From a virus: a DNA stretch of 64,000 bases. The stretch is from IMG/VR virus record IMGVR_UViG_3300021541_000005, one strand, 5' to 3'. The notes beneath the pieces are model-generated. The model was not told the DNA's origin and did not search any database. It worked only from the letters and a program-made list of their open reading frames with translations. Made by a program: the position numbers and the translations under genes. Shown here piece by piece: positions 8,079-56,500 of this stretch (position 1 is the stretch's first letter; each line of letters begins with the position of its first letter).

Positions 8079-9548
8079 ATGGAACCCTTAACTATTGATG
8101 AATTCGCACAATTAGTAAGCAGAGGAGCTTGGAAACCATTCATACACTTATTACTAGTGGTTAAGCTATTACATTATGTAATAGAAGGTCGCATATCACG
8201 TTTAATGGTATTCATGCCTCCAAGACATGGTAAATCTGAGCTAATAAGTTACTATTTTTTAACATGGTTCCTAGGGTGTTTTCCTGATAAACAGGTAATA
8301 CTCACTACTCATAGCGCTAATTTCAGTCGTAAATGGGGTCGTAGAGTACGTAACCTTCTAGAATACATAGGAAAAGATGCATTTGAAGTTCCTATAGTAC
8401 TGGCTGAAGACAGTAAAGCTGCTCATACCTGGAACATTAAAGACCATAAAGGCGGTCTTGTCACAGCAGGTGTTGGTGGATCTATTCTGGGTGAGGGTGC
8501 AAATGGTTTCATCATAGATGATCCAACTAAAGGTTTCAAAAAAGCAAGAAGTAAAACACATCAAAAAGAACTAAACGATTGGTGGTTTACAGAAGCTAAA
8601 ACCCGTTTAAATGCAGATATTGAAGGTGGAAGTAAACCATGGGTAATAGGAATATGGCAAAGACTTAACATAGACGATTTAGCCGGTCAAATATTATACA
8701 AAAAAGAAGGAGACAAACGTGTACCAAATGAACCTCACATAACCTATCAAGAGGCTATGAGAATAATAGAGGAAGAAAACGAGGATGTACCTTATGGAAC
8801 ATGGGTAATCTTAAACTTACCTGCTATAGCTGAAGAAAATGACCCGTTAGGAAGAGCTCCTGGAGAGCCATTATGGCCAGAACAAAAACCATTAGAAGAA
8901 CTCCAACACATTAAAACTGAAATGGGTAGTTTCAGATTCAACGCAGTATATCAAGGAAACCCACGTGAACCTGAAGGTAATGTATTTTTCCGTAAATGGT
9001 TTCGTAACAGTAAAATGTCACCTAAAGAAATGGATAAGCTCATTGTTAAATTACCTACATTACGATACTGGGATCTTGGAGCTTCAGGTGAGGATGGAGA
9101 TCCAACAGCAGCCCTGTACACTGCATGGGATGGTGAATATATGTACATGAGAAAACTCTTACATAAAGGATTAACCCCATTACAGGTTGAAAAATACTTC
9201 CTAGACACTACTCTACGTGATGGTAAAAGTACACGTGTTAAAATAGAGCAAGAACCTGGTGCATCACCTAAAGTTTTAATCAATAACTTAGCACGTAGAA
9301 AAGAATTCAAAGGTTATAGTATAAGGCCGGATAGAGTAAGGGATTATGGTGATAAATTAACACGTAGTTTTGACTTGCAGGCATTAGCAGAGGCTGATAA
9401 AGTACGTATTTCAGAAGATATTTTTGACATGGTGGTTGATGAATTAGTTGAATTCACTGGTGAGGAAGGAGGCCAGGACAATATCACAGATGTAGCAACT
9501 GGTTCTGCCCGCCATTGGAAGCGTAGACGAGCTAAAATACACGCATAA
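8079..9548 (+). CDS. terL: Terminase large subunit
   Basis: Walker A MPPRHGKSE, Walker B FIIDDP, C-terminal RNase H-like YWDLG...D and QDNITD. Confidence 0.95.
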   Translation: MEPLTIDEFAQLVSRGAWKPFIHLLLVVKLLHYVIEGRISRLMVFMPPRHGKSELISYYFLTWFLGCFPDKQVILTTHSANFSRKWGRRVRNLLEYIGKDAFEVPIVLAEDSKAAHTWNIKDHKGGLVTAGVGGSILGEGANGFIIDDPTKGFKKARSKTHQKELNDWWFTEAKTRLNADIEGGSKPWVIGIWQRLNIDDLAGQILYKKEGDKRVPNEPHITYQEAMRIIEEENEDVPYGTWVILNLPAIAEENDPLGRAPGEPLWPEQKPLEELQHIKTEMGSFRFNAVYQGNPREPEGNVFFRKWFRNSKMSPKEMDKLIVKLPTLRYWDLGASGEDGDPTAALYTAWDGEYMYMRKLLHKGLTPLQVEKYFLDTTLRDGKSTRVKIEQEPGASPKVLINNLARRKEFKGYSIRPDRVRDYGDKLTRSFDLQALAEADKVRISEDIFDMVVDELVEFTGEEGGQDNITDVATGSARHWKRRRAKIHA

Positions 9549-9575: not shown

Positions 9576-11183
9576 ATGGTTAAATCAGAATCATGGATAG
9601 TAACAGTAGACGAAACTACTGGTGACGTTAAAGATGTTATAAGCGAAATTGAAATGGGCAAATATGCTATAAAAGCAGATGTTGACCCTACTACGGGGAG
9701 TAAACAAACACCTAGTGATCATTATGCTCATGGAATAACAGTTATTGACCCGAAATATAATCCTTATAATTTAATTGAATTATTAGATTTGTATAGTTAT
9801 CATGCTGATTGTGTTGATGCTGTTGCAACAGACGCCAGTGGTGTAGATTATACATTGAAACCTATTGAAGGAAAAGATGAAGTTGAAAGTGAGAAAATAA
9901 GATTCACAGAAATATTAGATAATAGTAAACCTTCAATTAATATTCACATTCACCGTATGATTTATGACCGTAGAAGCATAGGCTATGGTGCAATGGAAGT
10001 AATAAGAGAATCCACTAGTAAATCACCTATAACACGTTTAAAACACATACCATCACACACATTACGCCGTCATACAGACATGAAAAGAGTATTATACACA
10101 GATGACACAGGAAAAAAAGTCTGGTATGTGCTATATGGTAAAAATTACGATGATGATGGAAATCCAGTTGATGTTCATATGAAGACAGGTGAATTCCATC
10201 CATATAATAGTTTAAGCATGGAAGAAAAAGCTAATGAATTATTATGGACTATGGAGTATGCTCCAGGAACAAATTATTATGGTAGACCACCAATTATAGC
10301 TACATTACCATCCATACAATCTGATTTAGCTGCGGTACGTTATAATACTACTTTTTTCCAGAATTATGGTATGCCAGCATTCGCAGTCACAGTAACTGGA
10401 GATTTCCAAGATTACGAGGAAGAGAAATATATAAAAGACGATGATGGACGTGAAATTCTCAATCCCGATTATGATGAAAAACAAACTTTAAGATACCAAA
10501 TATCACAGCAAGTAAAAGAAGTAATACGCAATCCACATTCAGCTATTTGTATTACAGTACCATCTGAAGGAGTAGACGGAGATGTAGAAATTAAAATCAC
10601 TCAATTAAGTGTTGACGTTAAAGAAGGCTCTTTCAGAATGATGAAAAAAGACATACGTGATGAAGTAATACACGCTCACCAGGTTGACCCTTCACGTTTA
10701 GGTATTTTTGACAGTGGCAATTTAAATGGTACTAATTCTGAAGTCACTAAAGCATCCTATAAGTATGGTACTATTGCACCAATTAAAACTGAAGTTGAAT
10801 CTATGATAAATCAGATAGCAGCTGAATTAAAAGTGACTAGTTGGAAATTTGTTATTAATGATGTGGATCCAATTGACCATAGCCCACGTAAAGATTTAGC
10901 TGATTTTTTATTTGCACGTGGTGCAATGACTATTATGGATCTGATTAATAATTTTGGTGATGAATTCGGTTTGGCTGTTGATGACCCAAATGACCCTTAT
11001 TTGAACAGTAGATTCATTAATAATATCCCGTTGGAGCAAGTTTTCAATCAATCAGAACAGAATAGTTACTTGGAAGAAAAGAGTATTTTGAAGGCTTTGG
11101 ATGGTAATCTCTGGCAAGACTCTGAAGAGGATGATGATTTTTTAGGAGTTAACAATGACACAGGAATTGGAGAAACAGATTAA
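9576..11183 (+). CDS. Portal protein
   Basis: Follows TerL; FFQNYGMPAFAVTVTG and AHQVDPSRLG portal-type motifs. Confidence 0.9.
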   Translation: MVKSESWIVTVDETTGDVKDVISEIEMGKYAIKADVDPTTGSKQTPSDHYAHGITVIDPKYNPYNLIELLDLYSYHADCVDAVATDASGVDYTLKPIEGKDEVESEKIRFTEILDNSKPSINIHIHRMIYDRRSIGYGAMEVIRESTSKSPITRLKHIPSHTLRRHTDMKRVLYTDDTGKKVWYVLYGKNYDDDGNPVDVHMKTGEFHPYNSLSMEEKANELLWTMEYAPGTNYYGRPPIIATLPSIQSDLAAVRYNTTFFQNYGMPAFAVTVTGDFQDYEEEKYIKDDDGREILNPDYDEKQTLRYQISQQVKEVIRNPHSAICITVPSEGVDGDVEIKITQLSVDVKEGSFRMMKKDIRDEVIHAHQVDPSRLGIFDSGNLNGTNSEVTKASYKYGTIAPIKTEVESMINQIAAELKVTSWKFVINDVDPIDHSPRKDLADFLFARGAMTIMDLINNFGDEFGLAVDDPNDPYLNSRFINNIPLEQVFNQSEQNSYLEEKSILKALDGNLWQDSEEDDDFLGVNNDTGIGETD

Positions 11184-14100
11184 ACATATTAATAATAGTT
11201 TATTTGCTGCTAAAATGGAAAATATCATACAATACATGTATGAAGAGGAATTAAAAACAAGTGTAGCTGGAATATTCCATAGTATCCGTACAGAAATACT
11301 CAAGAATCTTGAAGAGTATTACGGTGATGTGCTGTTTAATGCACACATGGATTTAATATTAGCACCCATACATGAGCATCACAAACAATACTATGACACC
11401 ATAATGAAATACAAGCTCAAAGAGCATAGAAAAGGACGTGTTCAAGGAAAAAGATTAATTGCACGTGCTAAACAGTACGCCAAACAATACAGTAAAGCTT
11501 ATTATGGTGGTGCTGTTAAAGAGGACACGATTAATGTTCCTATGAATAGCATAATCAAGAAAGATGAATTATTTGCTACTTCAGACTACAGTGCTGAACA
11601 AATGCGTGACAAGACATTTGTTGCAAGTGAAAACACCTTAGCACGTGTAGATAAAGATATTAACGGCATAATCACAGATGGCTACCGTGATGGATGGGGT
11701 ATAAACGATGTAGCTAACAAGATAGAAACCCGTTTCAACCAGCTAGAAACATGGGAAGCACGACGCATAGCAAGAACCGAAATACACGGGTCACATATGC
11801 AAGGAGTAATGAACTCATATGAAGACATGGGCGTAGAATACTTACAATGGGGAGCAGCACATGACAACCGTACACGTGACACACATGCAGCATTAGACGG
11901 TGAAATCATACCCTGGAACGGTGTTTTCAGTAATGGTTTAAGGTATCCTGGAGATACAAATGGTCCGATTAGTGAGTGGATTAATTGTCGTTGTGGTGTT
12001 TTACCGTGGTTTTGTCCTCCTGGTATGATGGTGCCTGTGGGTATGTCTAATTTTAGGGAGTCTGATTTATTACCTTTAGGAACATTAGGAACCGGTGGAG
12101 ACTTATTAACACAATTCCAAGATGAAGTCTCAGCAATACCAAAACAATCATCATCTTTTGACTTAGACATTATTAATCCTAAATTAATTGATTCTAAATT
12201 CTCAATACCTAATGAAGATTTATCAGAATTTGGAATAACTGAAAAAGGAATGGAAACAATTCAAAGATATACTAAACGTAGAATTGGCTCTGATATAGAA
12301 TATGGTGTAGTATTCAATGAGAAAAACGGTAAATTCTTATCTAAAGAATTTAAAGGAGCTAGTAATGATATAGTATTAACCAAACCAAATGGAAAATATA
12401 GTACAATACACTACCATACTGATGAGGGTTTTAGACCTACATCTTCAGGAGATTTCTTTGAATTCTTAAACTCAAAAAATGAACGTGTAGGAATAAATAT
12501 CTCAAGAAAAGAATCATGGTTCATAAAAAATGAAGGCAAATTAACTTCTAAAGAAATTAATAAAATAACTGTAGATATTGATAGATTAGAACAAAAACAA
12601 TTAAAAAAGTTAACCGATGAATATCGTAAGTCATCACTTAAAATTAATAAGATTAAAGACCCTGTTAAAAGACAATCCGCTCAAAAAGAATTTGAAAAAT
12701 ATGTTGCAAATGAATTCTTAGACAAACATAATAAAGAATTAGGTGATGCAATACTTGAATATACATCAAATATCAAAGGATTAAAAGTAAAAAGAGTAAT
12801 GCATACAGAAATAAATCCAAAATCTATTAAAACAATAAGTAAAAAAGAATTAAAAGTAGATAAAAGAAGTTTTGAAGAGTTAACTGGTGTTAAAAGACAT
12901 TCAACACCAATTAATAATAAAGACTATAATAAATATGCTTTGACATCGGTTGAAGAAAAAACATTAGCAAAATTAGAAGCTGAAAAAGATTCATTAGGTA
13001 TGATAGAAAAACGTAGTTATAAGGAATTGGCAGATAGAAAAGAATTCAACTCATTATGGAATAAAATATTACGTGAAGGAGGAAATCCTAATGATGTAAT
13101 GGAGCTATCTGGGGGAGAGGGTGTAAGATATGAAAAATTAATGAAAAAATTCAAAGATTGGACTCCAAAAGGCGACATTGAAATAAAACCAATACAAATT
13201 AACAAAAAAACTATTTTTAAAGATAAAGATGCATTCAAATTAACATCTGAAGAAAAACAAGCATACAAAAAACTTAAAAAGAACAAAGGTAGCTTGTCAA
13301 CGGATGAAAAAGAATACTACTCTCAATTATCAACTAAATTACAACTCCATCAAAAACATCAAGAATTGATTGGAAACGGTTTGAGTGAAACTAAATCTAA
13401 AACATATGTTGAATTGTATTCTCGATATCGAAAACAATGGAATTTACCTGAATTATCCCTTGATTTAAAATTCACTACACAACAAAAATCATTTATTTCA
13501 TATGATTATTATAAGAATGCTACAGAATTTAAACTTACTAAAAAAGAAGCAGATAAATTATATGAATTAGAGAAAAAACAATTATACGGACGAAAATTAA
13601 CTTCAAATGAATTAAAAACAATGGATGAATTACATAATCAACAAAGATTCATTTACTTGAATAATATTAATCAAACAGAAAAAGGTTTAGATTATGATGC
13701 TACTATTGAGTTTAAAAAATTATATAAATCATTAAAAACAAAACTTAAATTAGATAAAAGTGTTTTAGAGCAACCTTTAACAGGGTATGAATCTAAAATT
13801 TCTTTAGATAAAAATCCTAAGAATTTAAAAACATTTAAAGGCACTAATGAGGAAGGTTTACTCCCGAATGGTGAATCCTTAGAAAAGTATTTCACTAAAG
13901 ATGCACGTGAAATGACCATACGTGAACAAAAAGTAGCGGATAGATGGTTGGGTTCGGATTATAAAGCATTCACTAACTTTGAAGTGGATTGTGGGCGTGA
14001 TGTTAAGAAATTCGAGAAATGGATTTATGACATGGCCAAAGCATACAAAGAAGACAATTCATTAAAATATTATCAGTATTATTATGATGAAATAACCAGG

Positions 14101-14580
14101 AGAACAGGTAGAATATCAAAATCTGAAGCTAAAAAATTAGCAGAATCTATTGCTCATGATGTGCCTGTTTTAGATGATATATTAAATAATCAATTGAAAG
14201 AAGGTATGACATTATGGCGTGTACAAGAGAATCATAATTTAAGTTCCACCACGATTGGTGAGGTTATGGATTTCCCTAATTTCAGATCTACAGCTATTTC
14301 CAAAGAAGGGGCATTATGGTTCAGTAAAACTAACGCTAAAGAGATGAATTATTTAATTGAAATTGAGGCTCCAGCAGGTACTAAAGGAGCATATTTAGCT
14401 CCAATAAAACAAGGAGAAATAATAAATCCAACATCTCCTTTCGTAGGAGAGAAATATGCGAATGAAATGGAATTTTTATTAAAAAAATCTAAAGTAGAGT
14501 TGGTTAAATTCGAGGATAAAACTGTTAAAGGTGCTAATGGTGAAAAATTAAAACATATACTGTTAAGAATAGTGGGATGA
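11155..14580 (+). CDS. MuF/SPP1 gp7-like minor head protein fused to JAMM-like, helical-repeat and ADP-ribosyltransferase domains
   Basis: ARRIARTE, W-x4-D-x-RTR-x2-H and INCRC MuF motifs; HYH-x8-S-x2-D; TLWR / FRST / NEME R-S-ExE triad. Confidence 0.9.
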   Translation: MTQELEKQIKHINNSLFAAKMENIIQYMYEEELKTSVAGIFHSIRTEILKNLEEYYGDVLFNAHMDLILAPIHEHHKQYYDTIMKYKLKEHRKGRVQGKRLIARAKQYAKQYSKAYYGGAVKEDTINVPMNSIIKKDELFATSDYSAEQMRDKTFVASENTLARVDKDINGIITDGYRDGWGINDVANKIETRFNQLETWEARRIARTEIHGSHMQGVMNSYEDMGVEYLQWGAAHDNRTRDTHAALDGEIIPWNGVFSNGLRYPGDTNGPISEWINCRCGVLPWFCPPGMMVPVGMSNFRESDLLPLGTLGTGGDLLTQFQDEVSAIPKQSSSFDLDIINPKLIDSKFSIPNEDLSEFGITEKGMETIQRYTKRRIGSDIEYGVVFNEKNGKFLSKEFKGASNDIVLTKPNGKYSTIHYHTDEGFRPTSSGDFFEFLNSKNERVGINISRKESWFIKNEGKLTSKEINKITVDIDRLEQKQLKKLTDEYRKSSLKINKIKDPVKRQSAQKEFEKYVANEFLDKHNKELGDAILEYTSNIKGLKVKRVMHTEINPKSIKTISKKELKVDKRSFEELTGVKRHSTPINNKDYNKYALTSVEEKTLAKLEAEKDSLGMIEKRSYKELADRKEFNSLWNKILREGGNPNDVMELSGGEGVRYEKLMKKFKDWTPKGDIEIKPIQINKKTIFKDKDAFKLTSEEKQAYKKLKKNKGSLSTDEKEYYSQLSTKLQLHQKHQELIGNGLSETKSKTYVELYSRYRKQWNLPELSLDLKFTTQQKSFISYDYYKNATEFKLTKKEADKLYELEKKQLYGRKLTSNELKTMDELHNQQRFIYLNNINQTEKGLDYDATIEFKKLYKSLKTKLKLDKSVLEQPLTGYESKISLDKNPKNLKTFKGTNEEGLLPNGESLEKYFTKDAREMTIREQKVADRWLGSDYKAFTNFEVDCGRDVKKFEKWIYDMAKAYKEDNSLKYYQYYYDEITRRTGRISKSEAKKLAESIAHDVPVLDDILNNQLKEGMTLWRVQENHNLSSTTIGEVMDFPNFRSTAISKEGALWFSKTNAKEMNYLIEIEAPAGTKGAYLAPIKQGEIINPTSPFVGEKYANEMEFLLKKSKVELVKFEDKTVKGANGEKLKHILLRIVG

Positions 14581-14584
14581 TAAA

Positions 14585-14905
14585 ATGAAAAGAGCAGAAA
14601 TTATTAATATAAACTATTTGATTGATCATGCTGAAGATATTATAAATAACACTACTGTTCTATTTCCTCAATGGTTGTGGCGTAGATCCAAATGTTCTGA
14701 TGATGGTGAGCAGTTGCAGGATATTTGGGATCGTATGTATCAAAAACATCAAAGAGAAAGTGGCAATTGGTATATTTTCGGTAGAGGTGATCCTTGGATT
14801 AACCCTGGTGAAACATGGGACGAAGCTCAAGACCGCATAGTCAGAGAATATTGTGAAGCCACTGGCCACTGGGATTTATTCATATGGAAAGAGGTGAAAG
14901 AATGA
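14585..14905 (+). CDS. Orphan protein, candidate immunity protein 1
   Basis: Immediately downstream of the toxin-like domain, no structural motif. Confidence 0.5.
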   Translation: MKRAEIININYLIDHAEDIINNTTVLFPQWLWRRSKCSDDGEQLQDIWDRMYQKHQRESGNWYIFGRGDPWINPGETWDEAQDRIVREYCEATGHWDLFIWKEVKE

Positions 14906-15420
14906 AAGTACTTCAATTTGATTCACATTTCATCAATGATCATATGGATGAATTAGTTCATTTGGAAGACTATGTACCAGAAATATTATTTAGTTATTAT
15001 GATAAGCAAAATGAACGTGATAGATTCTTAAAATCTAAAAATTTATTAGAAACTATACATAAGATAGATCAATTATTGGATGAAAAATGTAAACTTTCAA
15101 AAAATCCAATTATGATAAGGAATAGTATTATCATTGAATGGTTAGATTGTCATCCTGAATTTGAAGGAATAATAGCTGGGGAATTCTGGGAAAAGTATCA
15201 AATGATGAAAAATAATAATGATTTTATTGAGTTTATTGATCTTTTATCTCAATTCAAATTTGCTTCTGAAGAACAAATTATAGCAAAATATGAATATCGT
15301 AATGATGTTATTCATAAAGATGATTCTAATAGAATGTTTCCTGATTTTAAAAAAATTGATGCTATTTTTAATAAATATGGGGCTTCTTTATTAGCATGTT
15401 ATTTATCAGAGTTTGTTTAA
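14902..15420 (+). CDS. Orphan protein, candidate immunity protein 2
   Basis: RBS gaggtga before ATG 14902, ATGA overlap; very AT-rich. Confidence 0.5.
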   Translation: MKVLQFDSHFINDHMDELVHLEDYVPEILFSYYDKQNERDRFLKSKNLLETIHKIDQLLDEKCKLSKNPIMIRNSIIIEWLDCHPEFEGIIAGEFWEKYQMMKNNNDFIEFIDLLSQFKFASEEQIIAKYEYRNDVIHKDDSNRMFPDFKKIDAIFNKYGASLLACYLSEFV

Positions 15421-15428
15421 TTTTTTTT

Positions 15429-15500
15429 AGTCCTATGGTGTAATGGCAATCATGGTGGGTTTTGGTCCCGCTGACTCAGGTTCGACTCCTGATAGGACTA
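15429..15500 (+). tRNA. tRNA-Gln (anticodon UUG), no encoded CCA
   Basis: AGTCCTA/TAGGACT acceptor, GTGGG-TTTTGGT-CCCGC anticodon arm, TCAGG-TTCGACT-CCTGA T arm. Confidence 0.95.
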
Positions 15501-15514
15501 TACAACTTTTTTTG

Positions 15515-15598
15515 GGTAGAATAGTCAAGTGGTCAAAGACGATGTGCTTAGGACTCATTCCTTTAGTAGGTCCGCAGGTTCAAATCCTGCTTCTACCA
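15515..15598 (+). tRNA. tRNA-Leu (anticodon UAG), long variable arm, no encoded CCA
   Basis: GGTAGAA/TTCTACC acceptor, loop CTTAGGA, variable arm CCT-TTAGT-AGG, GCAGG-TTCAAAT-CCTGC. Confidence 0.92.
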
Positions 15599-16104: not shown

Positions 16105-17154
16105 ATGGAGGTATTAACTATTCAAATAAAAAACATGGCTGTGAAAAGTGATGATCAGTTCTTATTCACTGCTCCCGTAATGATACCAGACAAACCAGAT
16201 TGTGATTATGAAAGGGGAGAGGGAACATTCACAGCAGAAGAAATACGATTCTTTAAAGAATCATTTCAGGATTATCAAATCATTGATAAGAATCATCAAG
16301 TATTCAAGGAGTTAGGGAGTGCTAAAAGCATTAAAGACCAAATGGTTGGAGACCCTGTAAATAGTTTCATCCTCGATGAAGAAACTACTTACAAACTCGT
16401 TAATGGTGGTACAGAAACTTATCCTGCGGGTACTTGGATGTTAACTTCAGATGTAACAGATCCAACTACACAACAAGAAATTGAAGATGGTATATTAACT
16501 GGTTATAGTCTATCAGTGCATCGTGAAGATATTGGACGATTAATCAAGAAATACATGGCTACTAAAGCTAGTGGTGGTCAGTTAATTCATGATATACCAA
16601 ATCCTAATGCAATCACTGTGAGCATTGTAAAAAAACCTTGTCAAAGTGGATCTAAACAATGTAAATTAAATGGAAGTGATGTTATGGGTGATGACAAAAA
16701 GACACTTGATAAAATCAGAGAAGCTCTTGGTATGGATAACCCAGGATATGCTACTAAATCTGATTTGGATGCATTAGCTAAAGAAATTAAAGAGGAAAAT
16801 GCTGCGGCTATGAAGTCAGCAGCTGAAGAAATGGGCACTACTATAAGTGATGCTATTAAAGAGGCTTTTAGTGAAGTTGGTGCTATTAAATCTAAAAAAG
16901 AACCTGATAATGACGATGATGATAAGGGTGGTTCTGGTGACAATAAACCAGCAGATACTGATGGTAATGACTCAAAACCAAACCCTGATGATGACGACGA
17001 TGAGGAACTTAAGAAAAAATCTAAAAAACCTAAAAAAGATGGTTCTAAACAAGGAAAAGTACATAATGGAGCAACTAAATCCAATAATACTGAAGATTTA
17101 GACACTTATGCGTTCCTTGGAAGAAACCCAGATGGTACAAGTAAAAATATTTAA
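16105..17154 (+). CDS. Prohead protease (XkdF/S78-like) with C-terminal scaffold region; true start uncertain
   Basis: APVMIPDKPD, GTWML and DGILTGYSL motifs; acidic low-complexity tail; precedes capsid gene. Confidence 0.8.
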   Translation: MEVLTIQIKNMAVKSDDQFLFTAPVMIPDKPDCDYERGEGTFTAEEIRFFKESFQDYQIIDKNHQVFKELGSAKSIKDQMVGDPVNSFILDEETTYKLVNGGTETYPAGTWMLTSDVTDPTTQQEIEDGILTGYSLSVHREDIGRLIKKYMATKASGGQLIHDIPNPNAITVSIVKKPCQSGSKQCKLNGSDVMGDDKKTLDKIREALGMDNPGYATKSDLDALAKEIKEENAAAMKSAAEEMGTTISDAIKEAFSEVGAIKSKKEPDNDDDDKGGSGDNKPADTDGNDSKPNPDDDDDEELKKKSKKPKKDGSKQGKVHNGATKSNNTEDLDTYAFLGRNPDGTSKNI

Positions 17155-41982: not shown

Positions 41983-42416
41983 ACAATAGCCTTTATACAA
42001 CAATCTCTCCAGAAATGGAATGCAGCCCAATATTATCTCCTGAAGAGGAGATAATGGATTATGCCTTAACCTTCATGGATGATGTAGATTCACGGGAAAT
42101 ATTCGATGACGAACCTATCCATAACGTAAGAAATTACGTTGCAAGTGTATTCCTTAAAGGATTAAACACACAAGTCAACAGTATAGAACTCCATGGCGAA
42201 TGGGGGCTTGAAATACCTAAAAAAGACACTGAATTCATTAGTGAAATACTAAATTTAACAGGTATACAATATACTGTCAAAGATGCAAGGTTTCTTAATA
42301 TCTGGGGTCATTGGACACATAAAAGCTTTGATTTAATAGTCATTGATGACAATAATTTCAGAGTACTAGCACGTAAACTACGTAATGAAATTGTAATTGT
42401 GGGAGATGATCACTAA
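41979..42416 (+). CDS. Hypothetical early protein
   Basis: 145-aa ORF coupled at both ends. Confidence 0.65.
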   Translation: MNNSLYTTISPEMECSPILSPEEEIMDYALTFMDDVDSREIFDDEPIHNVRNYVASVFLKGLNTQVNSIELHGEWGLEIPKKDTEFISEILNLTGIQYTVKDARFLNIWGHWTHKSFDLIVIDDNNFRVLARKLRNEIVIVGDDH

Positions 42417-53598: not shown

Positions 53599-56500
53599 AC
53601 ATATTAATAATAGTTTATTTGCTGCTAAAATGGAAAATATCATACAATACATGTATGAAGAGGAATTAAAAACAAGTGTAGCTGGAATATTCCATAGTAT
53701 CCGTACAGAAATACTCAAGAATCTTGAAGAGTATTACGGTGATGTGCTGTTTAATGCACACATGGATTTAATATTAGCACCCATACATGAGCATCACAAA
53801 CAATACTATGACACCATAATGAAATACAAGCTCAAAGAGCATAGAAAAGGACGTGTTCAAGGAAAAAGATTAATTGCACGTGCTAAACAGTACGCCAAAC
53901 AATACAGTAAAGCTTATTATGGTGGTGCTGTTAAAGAGGACACGATTAATGTTCCTATGAATAGCATAATCAAGAAAGATGAATTATTTGCTACTTCAGA
54001 CTACAGTGCTGAACAAATGCGTGACAAGACATTTGTTGCAAGTGAAAACACCTTAGCACGTGTAGATAAAGATATTAACGGCATAATCACAGATGGCTAC
54101 CGTGATGGATGGGGTATAAACGATGTAGCTAACAAGATAGAAACCCGTTTCAACCAGCTAGAAACATGGGAAGCACGACGCATAGCAAGAACCGAAATAC
54201 ACGGGTCACATATGCAAGGAGTAATGAACTCATATGAAGACATGGGCGTAGAATACTTACAATGGGGAGCAGCACATGACAACCGTACACGTGACACACA
54301 TGCAGCATTAGACGGTGAAATCATACCCTGGAACGGTGTTTTCAGTAATGGTTTAAGGTATCCTGGAGATACAAATGGTCCGATTAGTGAGTGGATTAAT
54401 TGTCGTTGTGGTGTTTTACCGTGGTTTTGTCCTCCTGGTATGATGGTGCCTGTGGGTATGTCTAATTTTAGGGAGTCTGATTTATTACCTTTAGGAACAT
54501 TAGGAACCGGTGGAGACTTATTAACACAATTCCAAGATGAAGTCTCAGCAATACCAAAACAATCATCATCTTTTGACTTAGACATTATTAATCCTAAATT
54601 AATTGATTCTAAATTCTCAATACCTAATGAAGATTTATCAGAATTTGGAATAACTGAAAAAGGAATGGAAACAATTCAAAGATATACTAAACGTAGAATT
54701 GGCTCTGATATAGAATATGGTGTAGTATTCAATGAGAAAAACGGTAAATTCTTATCTAAAGAATTTAAAGGAGCTAGTAATGATATAGTATTAACCAAAC
54801 CAAATGGAAAATATAGTACAATACACTACCATACTGATGAGGGTTTTAGACCTACATCTTCAGGAGATTTCTTTGAATTCTTAAACTCAAAAAATGAACG
54901 TGTAGGAATAAATATCTCAAGAAAAGAATCATGGTTCATAAAAAATGAAGGCAAATTAACTTCTAAAGAAATTAATAAAATAACTGTAGATATTGATAGA
55001 TTAGAACAAAAACAATTAAAAAAGTTAACCGATGAATATCGTAAGTCATCACTTAAAATTAATAAGATTAAAGACCCTGTTAAAAGACAATCCGCTCAAA
55101 AAGAATTTGAAAAATATGTTGCAAATGAATTCTTAGACAAACATAATAAAGAATTAGGTGATGCAATACTTGAATATACATCAAATATCAAAGGATTAAA
55201 AGTAAAAAGAGTAATGCATACAGAAATAAATCCAAAATCTATTAAAACAATAAGTAAAAAAGAATTAAAAGTAGATAAAAGAAGTTTTGAAGAGTTAACT
55301 GGTGTTAAAAGACATTCAACACCAATTAATAATAAAGACTATAATAAATATGCTTTGACATCGGTTGAAGAAAAAACATTAGCAAAATTAGAAGCTGAAA
55401 AAGATTCATTAGGTATGATAGAAAAACGTAGTTATAAGGAATTGGCAGATAGAAAAGAATTCAACTCATTATGGAATAAAATATTACGTGAAGGAGGAAA
55501 TCCTAATGATGTAATGGAGCTATCTGGGGGAGAGGGTGTAAGATATGAAAAATTAATGAAAAAATTCAAAGATTGGACTCCAAAAGGCGACATTGAAATA
55601 AAACCAATACAAATTAACAAAAAAACTATTTTTAAAGATAAAGATGCATTCAAATTAACATCTGAAGAAAAACAAGCATACAAAAAACTTAAAAAGAACA
55701 AAGGTAGCTTGTCAACGGATGAAAAAGAATACTACTCTCAATTATCAACTAAATTACAACTCCATCAAAAACATCAAGAATTGATTGGAAACGGTTTGAG
55801 TGAAACTAAATCTAAAACATATGTTGAATTGTATTCTCGATATCGAAAACAATGGAATTTACCTGAATTATCCCTTGATTTAAAATTCACTACACAACAA
55901 AAATCATTTATTTCATATGATTATTATAAGAATGCTACAGAATTTAAACTTACTAAAAAAGAAGCAGATAAATTATATGAATTAGAGAAAAAACAATTAT
56001 ACGGACGAAAATTAACTTCAAATGAATTAAAAACAATGGATGAATTACATAATCAACAAAGATTCATTTACTTGAATAATATTAATCAAACAGAAAAAGG
56101 TTTAGATTATGATGCTACTATTGAGTTTAAAAAATTATATAAATCATTAAAAACAAAACTTAAATTAGATAAAAGTGTTTTAGAGCAACCTTTAACAGGG
56201 TATGAATCTAAAATTTCTTTAGATAAAAATCCTAAGAATTTAAAAACATTTAAAGGCACTAATGAGGAAGGTTTACTCCCGAATGGTGAATCCTTAGAAA
56301 AGTATTTCACTAAAGATGCACGTGAAATGACCATACGTGAACAAAAAGTAGCGGATAGATGGTTGGGTTCGGATTATAAAGCATTCACTAACTTTGAAGT
56401 GGATTGTGGGCGTGATGTTAAGAAATTCGAGAAATGGATTTATGACATGGCCAAAGCATACAAAGAAGACAATTCATTAAAATATTATCAGTATTATTAT

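Follow-up and report, generated by a model that had tools for sequence, protein, structure and literature searches.

A putative JAB/MPN+ metal-hydrolase module on a MuF head protein of a Methanobrevibacter tailed virus

Domain layout of the head protein

The viral sequence analysed here is a stretch of 64,000 nucleotides (IMG/VR record IMGVR_UViG_3300021541_000005), hereafter called the window. Directly after its portal gene, the plus strand carries a gene (11155–14580) for a polyvalent head protein of 1141 amino acids (P0001), which is composed of a MuF domain, a JAB/MPN+ module, a row of helical repeats, and an ADP-ribosyltransferase (ART). Our subject is the second of these parts, a probable metal-dependent hydrolase. 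The MuF/SPP1 gp7 minor-capsid domain spans residues 168–282 (11656–12000, + strand) and is the presumed capsid anchor. It is matched by Pfam PF04233 with 51 bits (cut-off 29.6) and by NCBIfam TIGR01641 phageSPP1_gp7 with 49.9 bits (cut-off 39.65), and the region also matches PHROG head-morphogenesis families. The JAB/MPN+ module follows at residues 341–560 (12175–12834, + strand), as delimited by an AlphaFold2 model and its structural matches, and consists of an alpha/beta catalytic core, a helical hairpin, and a closing strand. An earlier note on this DNA had marked 12240–12540, which is the catalytic core. The hairpin is formed by two long antiparallel helices of ca. 35 residues each, inserted at residues 465–537 (12547–12765, + strand; DSSP of the model), and alignments show that its length differs among homologues. 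The closing beta strand covers residues 543–549 (12781–12801, + strand; model strand 203–209) with the conserved sequence L-K-V-K-R-V. It is the C-terminus in those homologues that end with the JAB module, and it falls inside the part of the model that aligns to solved JAB structures.

The module is followed by a lysine-rich helical spacer, residues 561–935 (12835–13959, + strand). Its AlphaFold2 model, with a predicted local distance difference test (pLDDT) score of 76, is entirely helical and has three similar helix triplets; a repeat alignment likewise gives three divergent repeats of about 100 amino acids. Each repeat starts with a [YF]-[AK]-L-T-x-x-E motif. A fold search with the spacer returned no match (E at least 1), Pfam gave none, and there is no tandem repeat at the DNA level. 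The C-terminal ART occupies residues about 964–1125 (14044–14529, + strand) and matches Pfam PF03496 ADPrib_exo_Tox with an E-value of 7.2e-9 and 35.7 bits (cut-off 23.4). With a MuF domain and an ART both above their Pfam cut-offs and a JAB fold between them, the proposal of the earlier note that one MuF head protein carries two enzymes holds.

An N-terminal MuF domain, a position beside the portal gene, and a variable C-terminal cargo that includes an ART are features shared with the MuF polymorphic toxins (Jamet et al. 2017, PMC5576092) and with MuF-ART fusions of the Alt/VIP2 type (PMC9503650). The protein differs from MuF toxins in having two catalytic domains in series with ca. 375 amino acids of helical repeats between them, and in its archaeal host; the 2017 survey of MuF proteins mentions neither archaea nor JAB (PMC5576092).

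Predicted fold and active site of the JAB module

The AlphaFold2 model of residues 341–560, built with a 22-sequence alignment, has a pLDDT of 94.3 and a predicted template modelling score of 0.89. In order, its elements are a helix, a strand starting at E382, a strand ending in the HxH motif, a helix starting at S430/D433, two strands, the helix pair, and the final strand. The secondary structure of the model thereby places the catalytic residues on their canonical elements, with the Glu at a strand start, the HxH at a strand end, and the Ser and Asp at the N-terminus of the following helix. Foldseek against the PDB listed almost exclusively JAB/MPN proteins, namely CSN5, STAMBPL1, AMSH, the Jab1 domain of Prp8, Cap3, AF2198, RadC, BRCC36, and Sst2. 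In VIA-align, the best match was PfJAMM1 (5ld9/5lda; Z 8.6, root-mean-square deviation 3.1, 106–109 of about 130 residues, over model residues 18–208), followed by the Rpn11-like protein of Caldiarchaeum (6fno, Z 8.0), BubCD (9ea4, Z 7.5), AMSH (Z 7.4), Cap3 (9ild, Z 7.0), Rpn11 (Z 7.0), RadC (2qlc, Z 6.6, 97 of 126 residues), and AF2198 (Z 6.5). The alignments to JAMM1, Cap3, and AMSH cover model residues about 17–208. Apart from matches to the hairpin, all structural matches are JAB/MPN proteins. The model supports a genuine JAB/MPN+ fold for residues about 341–560. The earlier note had taken the motif to mark this fold and had named structure prediction as the check that might find it absent; an MPN-type alpha/beta core was found, its alpha/beta part matches JAB/MPN structures only, and the reading is borne out.

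Several other matches were discounted. Those to the insertion in the beta subunit of RNA polymerase and to other hairpin-containing structures (Z about 8) are generic and cover the helical hairpin only. An SMC_ScpB match (20.6 bits, module residues 116–200) lies within the hairpin and reflects coiled-coil composition, as does a match to TIGR04317. When the sequences of solved structures were searched, neither the single domain nor the family profile found a JAB; all rows were at chance level.

The signature E-x36-HxH-x8-S-x2-D, as the earlier note had claimed, is exactly present in the DNA and in the translation of the gene. Glu382 (GAA, 12298–12300, + strand), the predicted general base, belongs to a conserved E-Y-G where a beta strand begins (model strand 43–47). 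His419-Tyr420-His421 (CAC-TAC-CAT, 12409–12417, + strand) provides the two predicted histidine metal ligands at a strand end (model strand 75–80) and aligns with the HSH of the host's own JAMM1. Ser430 (12442–12444), the predicted stabiliser of the reaction intermediate, and Asp433 (12451–12453), the predicted third metal ligand, form the S-x2-D (12442–12453, + strand) at the N-terminus of the next helix (model helix 91–99). Where many JAB domains have a proline after HxH there is Thr422, a substitution that had also been pointed out before. Between the two histidines the window has Tyr and most relatives have Asn, and the family consensus reads H-N-H-[TP]...P-S-x-x-D.

Among 20,000 shuffles of the protein, 0.3% contained an HxH-x7/8-S-x2-D with an upstream Glu; given this frequency and its conservation, the motif is not a product of chance. 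An exhaustive HMMER search of 1.84 billion representative proteins returned no more than 23 at E up to 1e-3, and the family is therefore small and divergent. Once repeat-type false matches were set aside, all homologues keep H-x-H-x8-S-x2-D, one with a shorter spacer. The alignment of 22 homologues comprises viral MuF-linked and short metagenomic copies that are 23–86% identical to the window. None of them deviates at H419, H421, S430, or D433, at least 90% retain E382, and G401 and W455 are invariant as well. An 11-sequence alignment of the domain alone has E382, H419, H421, and S430 invariant, and Asp433 is replaced, by Asn, only in three stand-alone host paralogues.

Inactive MPN domains are common, and the module might be such a relic, an MPN-minus-like scaffold for capsid or portal contacts. 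The loss of the Asp in stand-alone Methanobrevibacter paralogues (described below) is compatible with this; invariance of the two His, Ser, and Asp and near-invariance of the Glu down to 23% identity in the viral and short metagenomic copies is not expected of a scaffold, and we regard the idea as highly improbable. The domain is instead very probably an active metal hydrolase, judged from sequence conservation, because the five catalytic residues stay conserved over deep divergence among the viral MuF-linked and short metagenomic copies aligned.

Relatives, host, and cargo exchange

In Pfam, DUF4329 (PF14220) is the only family that matches the catalytic core (E 1.1e-4, profile positions 5–78 of 116). 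No match to JAB (PF01398), Prok-JAB (PF14464), or RadC (PF04002) appeared at E up to 10 for the module or at E up to 1 for 11 domain-only members, among which DUF4329 and Toxin-JAB1 (PF15659) each gave two sub-threshold matches. PADLOC, with its Cap3 models included, gave no match at E up to 1; NCBIfam matched only the MuF part of the protein; and no PHROG covers the module, although P0021, a distant MuF-JAB relative, matches the unannotated phrog_13287. Megablast and tblastn searches with the gene and three JAB modules found no match in 50,697 deposited phage records, and a word-seeded profile search for longer proteins added close relatives only. Profile comparison by hhalign with 25 host JAMM1 (Prok-JAB) sequences aligned the first helix and the E, HxH, S, and D at an E-value of 3.5e-4 and a probability of 37%, which is not decisive; with a single host JAMM1 sequence the probability was 11%. 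The nearest clusters by language-model features are viral Prok-JAB, Toxin-JAB1, and DUF4329, with scores of 0.85–0.89 that serve as leads only. From these comparisons the domain appears to be an uncatalogued JAB subfamily, nearest to the toxin-type clades Tox-JAB-2/DUF4329 and Toxin-JAB1, and we do not file it under DUF4329, RadC, or Prok-JAB.

DUF4329 overlaps Tox-JAB-2, a clade recorded in Caudovirales, nucleocytoplasmic large DNA viruses (NCLDVs), and Xanthomonas phages (Zhang et al. 2012, PMC3482391). The module resembles Tox-JAB-2/DUF4329 and Toxin-JAB1 in its JAB fold, its E/HxH/S/D signature, and its presumed place as a delivered effector module, and its structural matches in BFVD include NCLDV and Xanthomonas-phage proteins, from lineages listed for Tox-JAB-2. 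It departs from the published Tox-JAB-2 signature in having H-[YN]-H with x8 rather than H-[ST]-H, the other positions being present. Unlike the toxin JABs it has a long helical hairpin with a closing strand, and its carrier is an archaeal-virus MuF head protein, not an Rhs toxin or a toxin of type VI or type VII secretion systems. With archaeal JAMM1 and the minimal Rpn11-like JAMMs it shares the best solved-structure matches (Z 8.0–8.6 over 106–112 residues) and catalytic residues that align with the host JAMM1 profile; it differs from them in the missing Prok-JAB and JAB matches, one extra residue between HxH and Ser, Tyr or Asn in place of Ser or Thr between the histidines, and the hairpin insertion. 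Cap3 of the cyclic-oligonucleotide-based antiphage signalling systems (CBASS) and the JAB deconjugases of Bub/Bil systems have the same fold; unlike these, the module is viral and capsid-linked, has no PADLOC match, and is surrounded by portal, protease, and capsid genes and not by genes for E1, E2, or ubiquitin-like (Ubl) proteins. A JAB on a capsid-packaged multi-effector protein is known from phages and conjugative elements, whose polyvalent proteins include RadC-type JABs (Iyer et al. 2017, PMC5512222). The window module differs from these JABs in having no PF04002 match, in its archaeal-virus host, and in being internal, with helical repeats and an ART behind it.

These affinities bear on the possibility that the module is a nucleic-acid or nucleotide enzyme in the style of RadC- or toxin-type JABs, acting as a nuclease or in end processing on host DNA or RNA early in infection. 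The family consensus resembles the RadC signature, and RadC itself is among the structural matches. Zhang et al. (2012) and Iyer et al. (2017) predicted nucleic-acid substrates for the nearest Pfam families and for RadC (PMC3482391, PMC5512222). On the other side, we found no JAB domain in the literature consulted that had been shown experimentally to be a nuclease, the Pfam RadC family does not match, and Ubl-specific JAMMs are slightly better structural matches than RadC. We consider a nucleic-acid enzyme unlikely.

The source of the window is, by sequence, a tailed virus or provirus of Methanobrevibacter, a genus of gut methanogens. The best match of its portal protein (9576–11183) is the portal of Methanobacterium virus Drs3, with 45.6% identity, and the runners-up come from viruses of Methanobrevibacter and Methanothermobacter. 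When a genome collection was scanned with the single protein, three loci had a close copy of the module, all in Methanobrevibacter metagenome-assembled genomes from goat gut or rumen. The nearest host genome compared (G001) has a provirus with an 84%-identical JAB module in an open reading frame (ORF) of 1154 amino acids. The exact 1141-residue protein is present on nine contigs from several samples. The module, or a weak relative, occurs in 16 of 301 Methanobacteriaceae genomes, and 13 of the 16 are among the 90 genomes of the host genus.

In BFVD, structural matches with E-values of 4e-9 to 5e-4 comprise 'minor capsid proteins' of 522–633 amino acids from uncultured siphoviruses and myoviruses, small uncharacterised phage proteins, and NCLDV proteins. 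A shape search of the ESM-Atlas with the whole module gave template modelling scores of 0.56–0.71 with viral clusters, a Methanobacteriota cluster, and clusters that also have Phage_min_cap2, VG15, or Phage_Mu_F domains. Such breadth of hosts matters for the idea of a virion-borne cell-wall isopeptidase that cuts the peptide cross-links of pseudomurein during genome delivery. The hosts of this virus lineage have pseudomurein walls with Lys isopeptide links, and isopeptide hydrolysis is JAMM chemistry. Similar modules, however, sit on minor capsid proteins of the uncultured siphoviruses and myoviruses and in Bacillota-associated clusters, whose hosts lack pseudomurein, and the domain has no wall-binding repeats. 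Although wall-degrading domains do occur on ejected head proteins (PMC5512222), we think a role in wall cleavage very improbable.

Wherever the context of a viral copy can be read, the module is on a MuF/SPP1-gp7 head protein of a Methanobacteriales virus, either as the sole appendage or with an ART behind it. In distant homologues, the module is kept as one unit and, with its hairpin and closing strand, ends the protein, leaving a C-terminal flank of two residues or fewer. Two such proteins, P0019 and P0025, have a MuF domain above the Pfam cut-off, and P0021 has a weak MuF match (E 0.024). All three loci are ordered terminase, portal, MuF/JAB, capsid. Compared with the window portal, theirs have identities of 61%, 49%, and 24%. 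Drs3 has a plain MuF protein of 272 amino acids with no cargo. Methanobrevibacter smithii tailed virus 1 (MSTV1) has a MuF domain and an ART without a JAB, and its MuF part and that of P0021 share 39% identity. The gene concerned (PP537965.1, L012:7377-9005) encodes a 542-residue post-portal 'hypothetical protein' whose ART-like C-terminus, unannotated in the record like the MuF domain, aligns with the ART region of the window family. Since other relatives have MuF with JAB or MuF with JAB and ART, the JAB and the ART are independent cargo cassettes on one anchor, a pattern already known from MuF polymorphic toxins and polyvalent proteins.

This independence argues against a role dedicated to release of the ART. 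The earlier note had inferred an effector that pairs a deconjugase with an ART; the pairing is not a specific one, as the module is also the only MuF appendage in related viruses. The same data bear on the possibility of a cis-acting processing peptidase, which would cut its own polyvalent protein and free the cargo from the MuF anchor, or the ART, after ejection. For polyvalent proteins, processing by peptidase domains of their own has been proposed (PMC5512222), and the JAB module is always placed directly after MuF and before any further cargo. In several relatives, though, the JAB is the last domain with nothing downstream for release, MSTV1 has its ART without any JAB, and no conserved site of the Gly-Gly type lies between the domains; self-cleavage in cis is quite improbable. 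One candidate Gly-Gly site, LGTGG near residue 318, was rejected upon reading the homologues, as it is absent from those with 60% identity or less.

A stand-alone family of ca. 245 amino acids (P0036–P0154; for example L021:1324-2061 on the minus strand, L017:1258-2019 and L022:1264-2055 on the plus strand) shares the JAB core and the helical region with the viral module, at profile E-values of 1e-16 to 1e-19. It comprises 237 clusters, has no Pfam domain, and is annotated as 'hypothetical protein' of Methanobrevibacter in all clusters with a named source. One copy is located between the genes for ribosomal protein L15e and an FmdE-like protein, a chromosomal context. These proteins keep the Glu (in E-C or E-W), the H-N-H-P, and the P-S, with S-x2-N replacing S-x2-D in 107 of 119, mostly of Methanobrevibacter type. 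The Asp-to-Asn paralogues may be altered-metal enzymes or pseudo-enzymes.

RadC-type JABs on phage polyvalent proteins (PMC5512222) and Tox-JAB-1 and -2 in toxins (PMC3482391) have been published. New here are a JAB subfamily with H-[YN]-H, x8 spacing, and a hairpin insertion, for which no curated model exists; the occurrence of this subfamily in viruses of methanogenic archaea; the serial layout of JAB, repeats, and ART; and the large stand-alone Methanobrevibacter family with Asn in place of the metal-binding Asp.

Possible mode of action and neighbouring genes

We interpret the domain as a probably active JAB/MPN+ metal-dependent hydrolase that forms a self-contained, MuF-borne effector cassette of Methanobacteriales tailed viruses and would be injected with the DNA; we give this interpretation a probability of roughly 0.6. 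The MuF part would position a few copies of the protein in the capsid at the portal, and upon infection the protein would be ejected with the DNA, as suggested by SPP1 gp7, T4 Alt, and the MuF toxins. In the cell, the JAB would act in trans. His419, His421, and Asp433 would hold a metal ion (probably Zn2+) that activates a water molecule via Glu382, and Ser430 would stabilise the intermediate. The substrate would most likely be an amide bond, peptide or isopeptide, of a host protein, and the separate C-terminal ART would modify other targets. MuF fusions have been described as capsid-packaged, injected effectors (PMC5512222, PMC5576092).

Several points weigh against this interpretation. The Foldseek E-values against the PDB are weak (0.02–0.4), and the VIA-align Z-scores of 6.5–8.6 are in the range that the tool terms 'middling'. 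No curated model matches the module at its threshold, DUF4329 reaching 22.5 bits with a cut-off of 28.6. The spacing from HxH to Ser is x8 and the canonical one is x7; x8 is common to the whole family, and the extra residue appears as a one-residue gap in the profile alignment to host JAMM1. For packaging, ejection, activity, and substrate, the basis is analogy with SPP1 gp7, T4 Alt, and the MuF toxins. Finally, the literature favours, by prediction, nucleic-acid substrates for toxin-type and RadC-type JABs (PMC3482391, PMC5512222).

If the module does hydrolyse amide bonds, it might do so as a deconjugase of Ubl modifiers, that is, a desampylase or an isopeptidase of the Urm1/Cap3 type, whose injection would serve to remove SAMP-type conjugates or to reverse antiviral tagging by Ubl proteins in the methanogen host. 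To our knowledge, all biochemically characterised JAB enzymes cut at Ubl C-termini, which counts for this possibility. The best solved-structure matches also speak for it, being minimal Ubl-specific JAMMs (PfJAMM1 with and without SAMP2, the Caldiarchaeum protein, and BubCD) that score above RadC. Some family members have an insertion immediately before the HxH strand in the domain alignment, where AMSH-type enzymes have their Ins-1, a likeness that would be one of position. A substrate class of the SAMP/Urm1 type, proposed in the earlier note, does exist in the host. Genome G001, which harbours the 84%-identical module, encodes two nearly identical 67-residue ThiS-type (SAMP/Urm1-like) proteins ending in I-Y-G-G. 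Of their genes, one adjoins a gene for a UbaA-like E1, and the other adjoins a tRNA thiolation gene of the NcsA/TtuA type (L013:483-1671 and L014:1498-2622). In all, the genome has three matches to ThiF-type E1 enzymes, one of which is interrupted by internal stop codons, and its single canonical JAMM1 gene is surrounded by housekeeping genes. In other archaea, Borg elements carry predicted de-SAMPylases (bioRxiv 10.1101/2024.11.05.622173).

Other findings oppose a Ubl deconjugase. By sequence, the closest families are the toxin-type JABs, for which the lack of a groove for the Ubl tail and a possible action on nucleic acids have been argued (PMC3482391), and neither the Prok-JAB and JAB models nor Cap3 match. 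The Z-scores of Ubl-specific JAMMs and RadC lie within about 2 units of each other, and small JAMMs may top the list simply by being minimal. No Ubl-based defence system came to light in the host, although no search aimed at one was made. Moreover, the host already has its own JAMM1; every one of the 41 sampled Methanobacteria genomes contains one. When the module was modelled in complex with the host's 67-residue SAMP-like protein (L013:1468-1668), the score was 0.19, under the mark of 0.32, in a single run without controls that gives no verdict. Deconjugation of Ubl proteins is in our judgement unlikely, if ahead of the other alternatives. Narrower still, and quite improbable, is the idea that the module is the first virion-delivered desampylase, stripping SAMP/Urm1-type tags or blocking the SAMP/E1 pathway together with the ART. 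If this were true, archaeal Ubl conjugation would have a role in antiviral defence or stress signalling that viruses must disarm, and the Asp-to-Asn stand-alone paralogues of Methanobrevibacter would be candidate Ubl-binding pseudo-enzymes.

As an injected hydrolase cassette, the module would belong to the MuF-fused effectors, a route by which many tailed viruses deliver enzymes before gene expression and of which almost nothing is known for methanogen viruses. The JAB subfamily is unnamed and absent from Pfam, NCBIfam, and PADLOC, and it spans capsid-borne modules of Methanobacteriales viruses and the stand-alone Methanobrevibacter family. Work on a tractable member whose active site is intact would help to decide between peptidase, Ubl deconjugase, and nucleic-acid enzyme for toxin-type and MuF-linked JABs, and could show whether SAMP-type tagging matters in the conflict between archaeal viruses and their hosts. 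As Methanobrevibacter is the dominant methanogen of gut and rumen, the entry weapons of its viruses are of practical interest.

The window holds one genome read about one and a half times round. Its ORF pattern recurs after 42,415 bp, and positions 1–21,585 equal positions 42,416–64,000 with 0 mismatches over 21,585 bases; it is therefore a single 42.4-kb genome wrapped around. Each feature in the first 21.6 kb is present twice, and a second, identical copy of the JAB module lies at 54590–55249 on the plus strand. The head genes are ordered as follows: the large terminase gene (8079–9548), the portal gene, the head-protein gene, two orphan ORFs, two tRNA genes, and a gene for an XkdF-type protease/scaffold (16105–17154) downstream of these. 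The tRNA genes, tRNA-Gln(TTG) at 15428–15501 and tRNA-Leu(TAG) at 15515–15598, both on the plus strand, thus lie among the head genes, behind the MuF cassette and ahead of the protease gene.

Small ORFs accompany the gene and its relatives. A tiny, mostly acidic ORF of 29–49 amino acids follows JAB-terminal MuF proteins or a lone JAB on short contigs (L006:5486-5575, L008:9788-9916, L001:1822-1920, and L002:1086-1235), overlapping the stop codon in three of the four cases. The four are K/E-rich and weakly similar to each other (pairwise E about 1e-3), and the product could be a partner or inhibitor. The window has no counterpart of this ORF beside its internal JAB. Behind its ART are the two orphan ORFs, 14585–14905 (106 amino acids) and 14884–15420 (178 amino acids), which overlap on the plus strand. 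They have no Pfam match and no similarity to the small ORFs behind the JAB-terminal relatives. Both are kept on other contigs that carry the gene, and they are candidate immunity genes or inhibitors.

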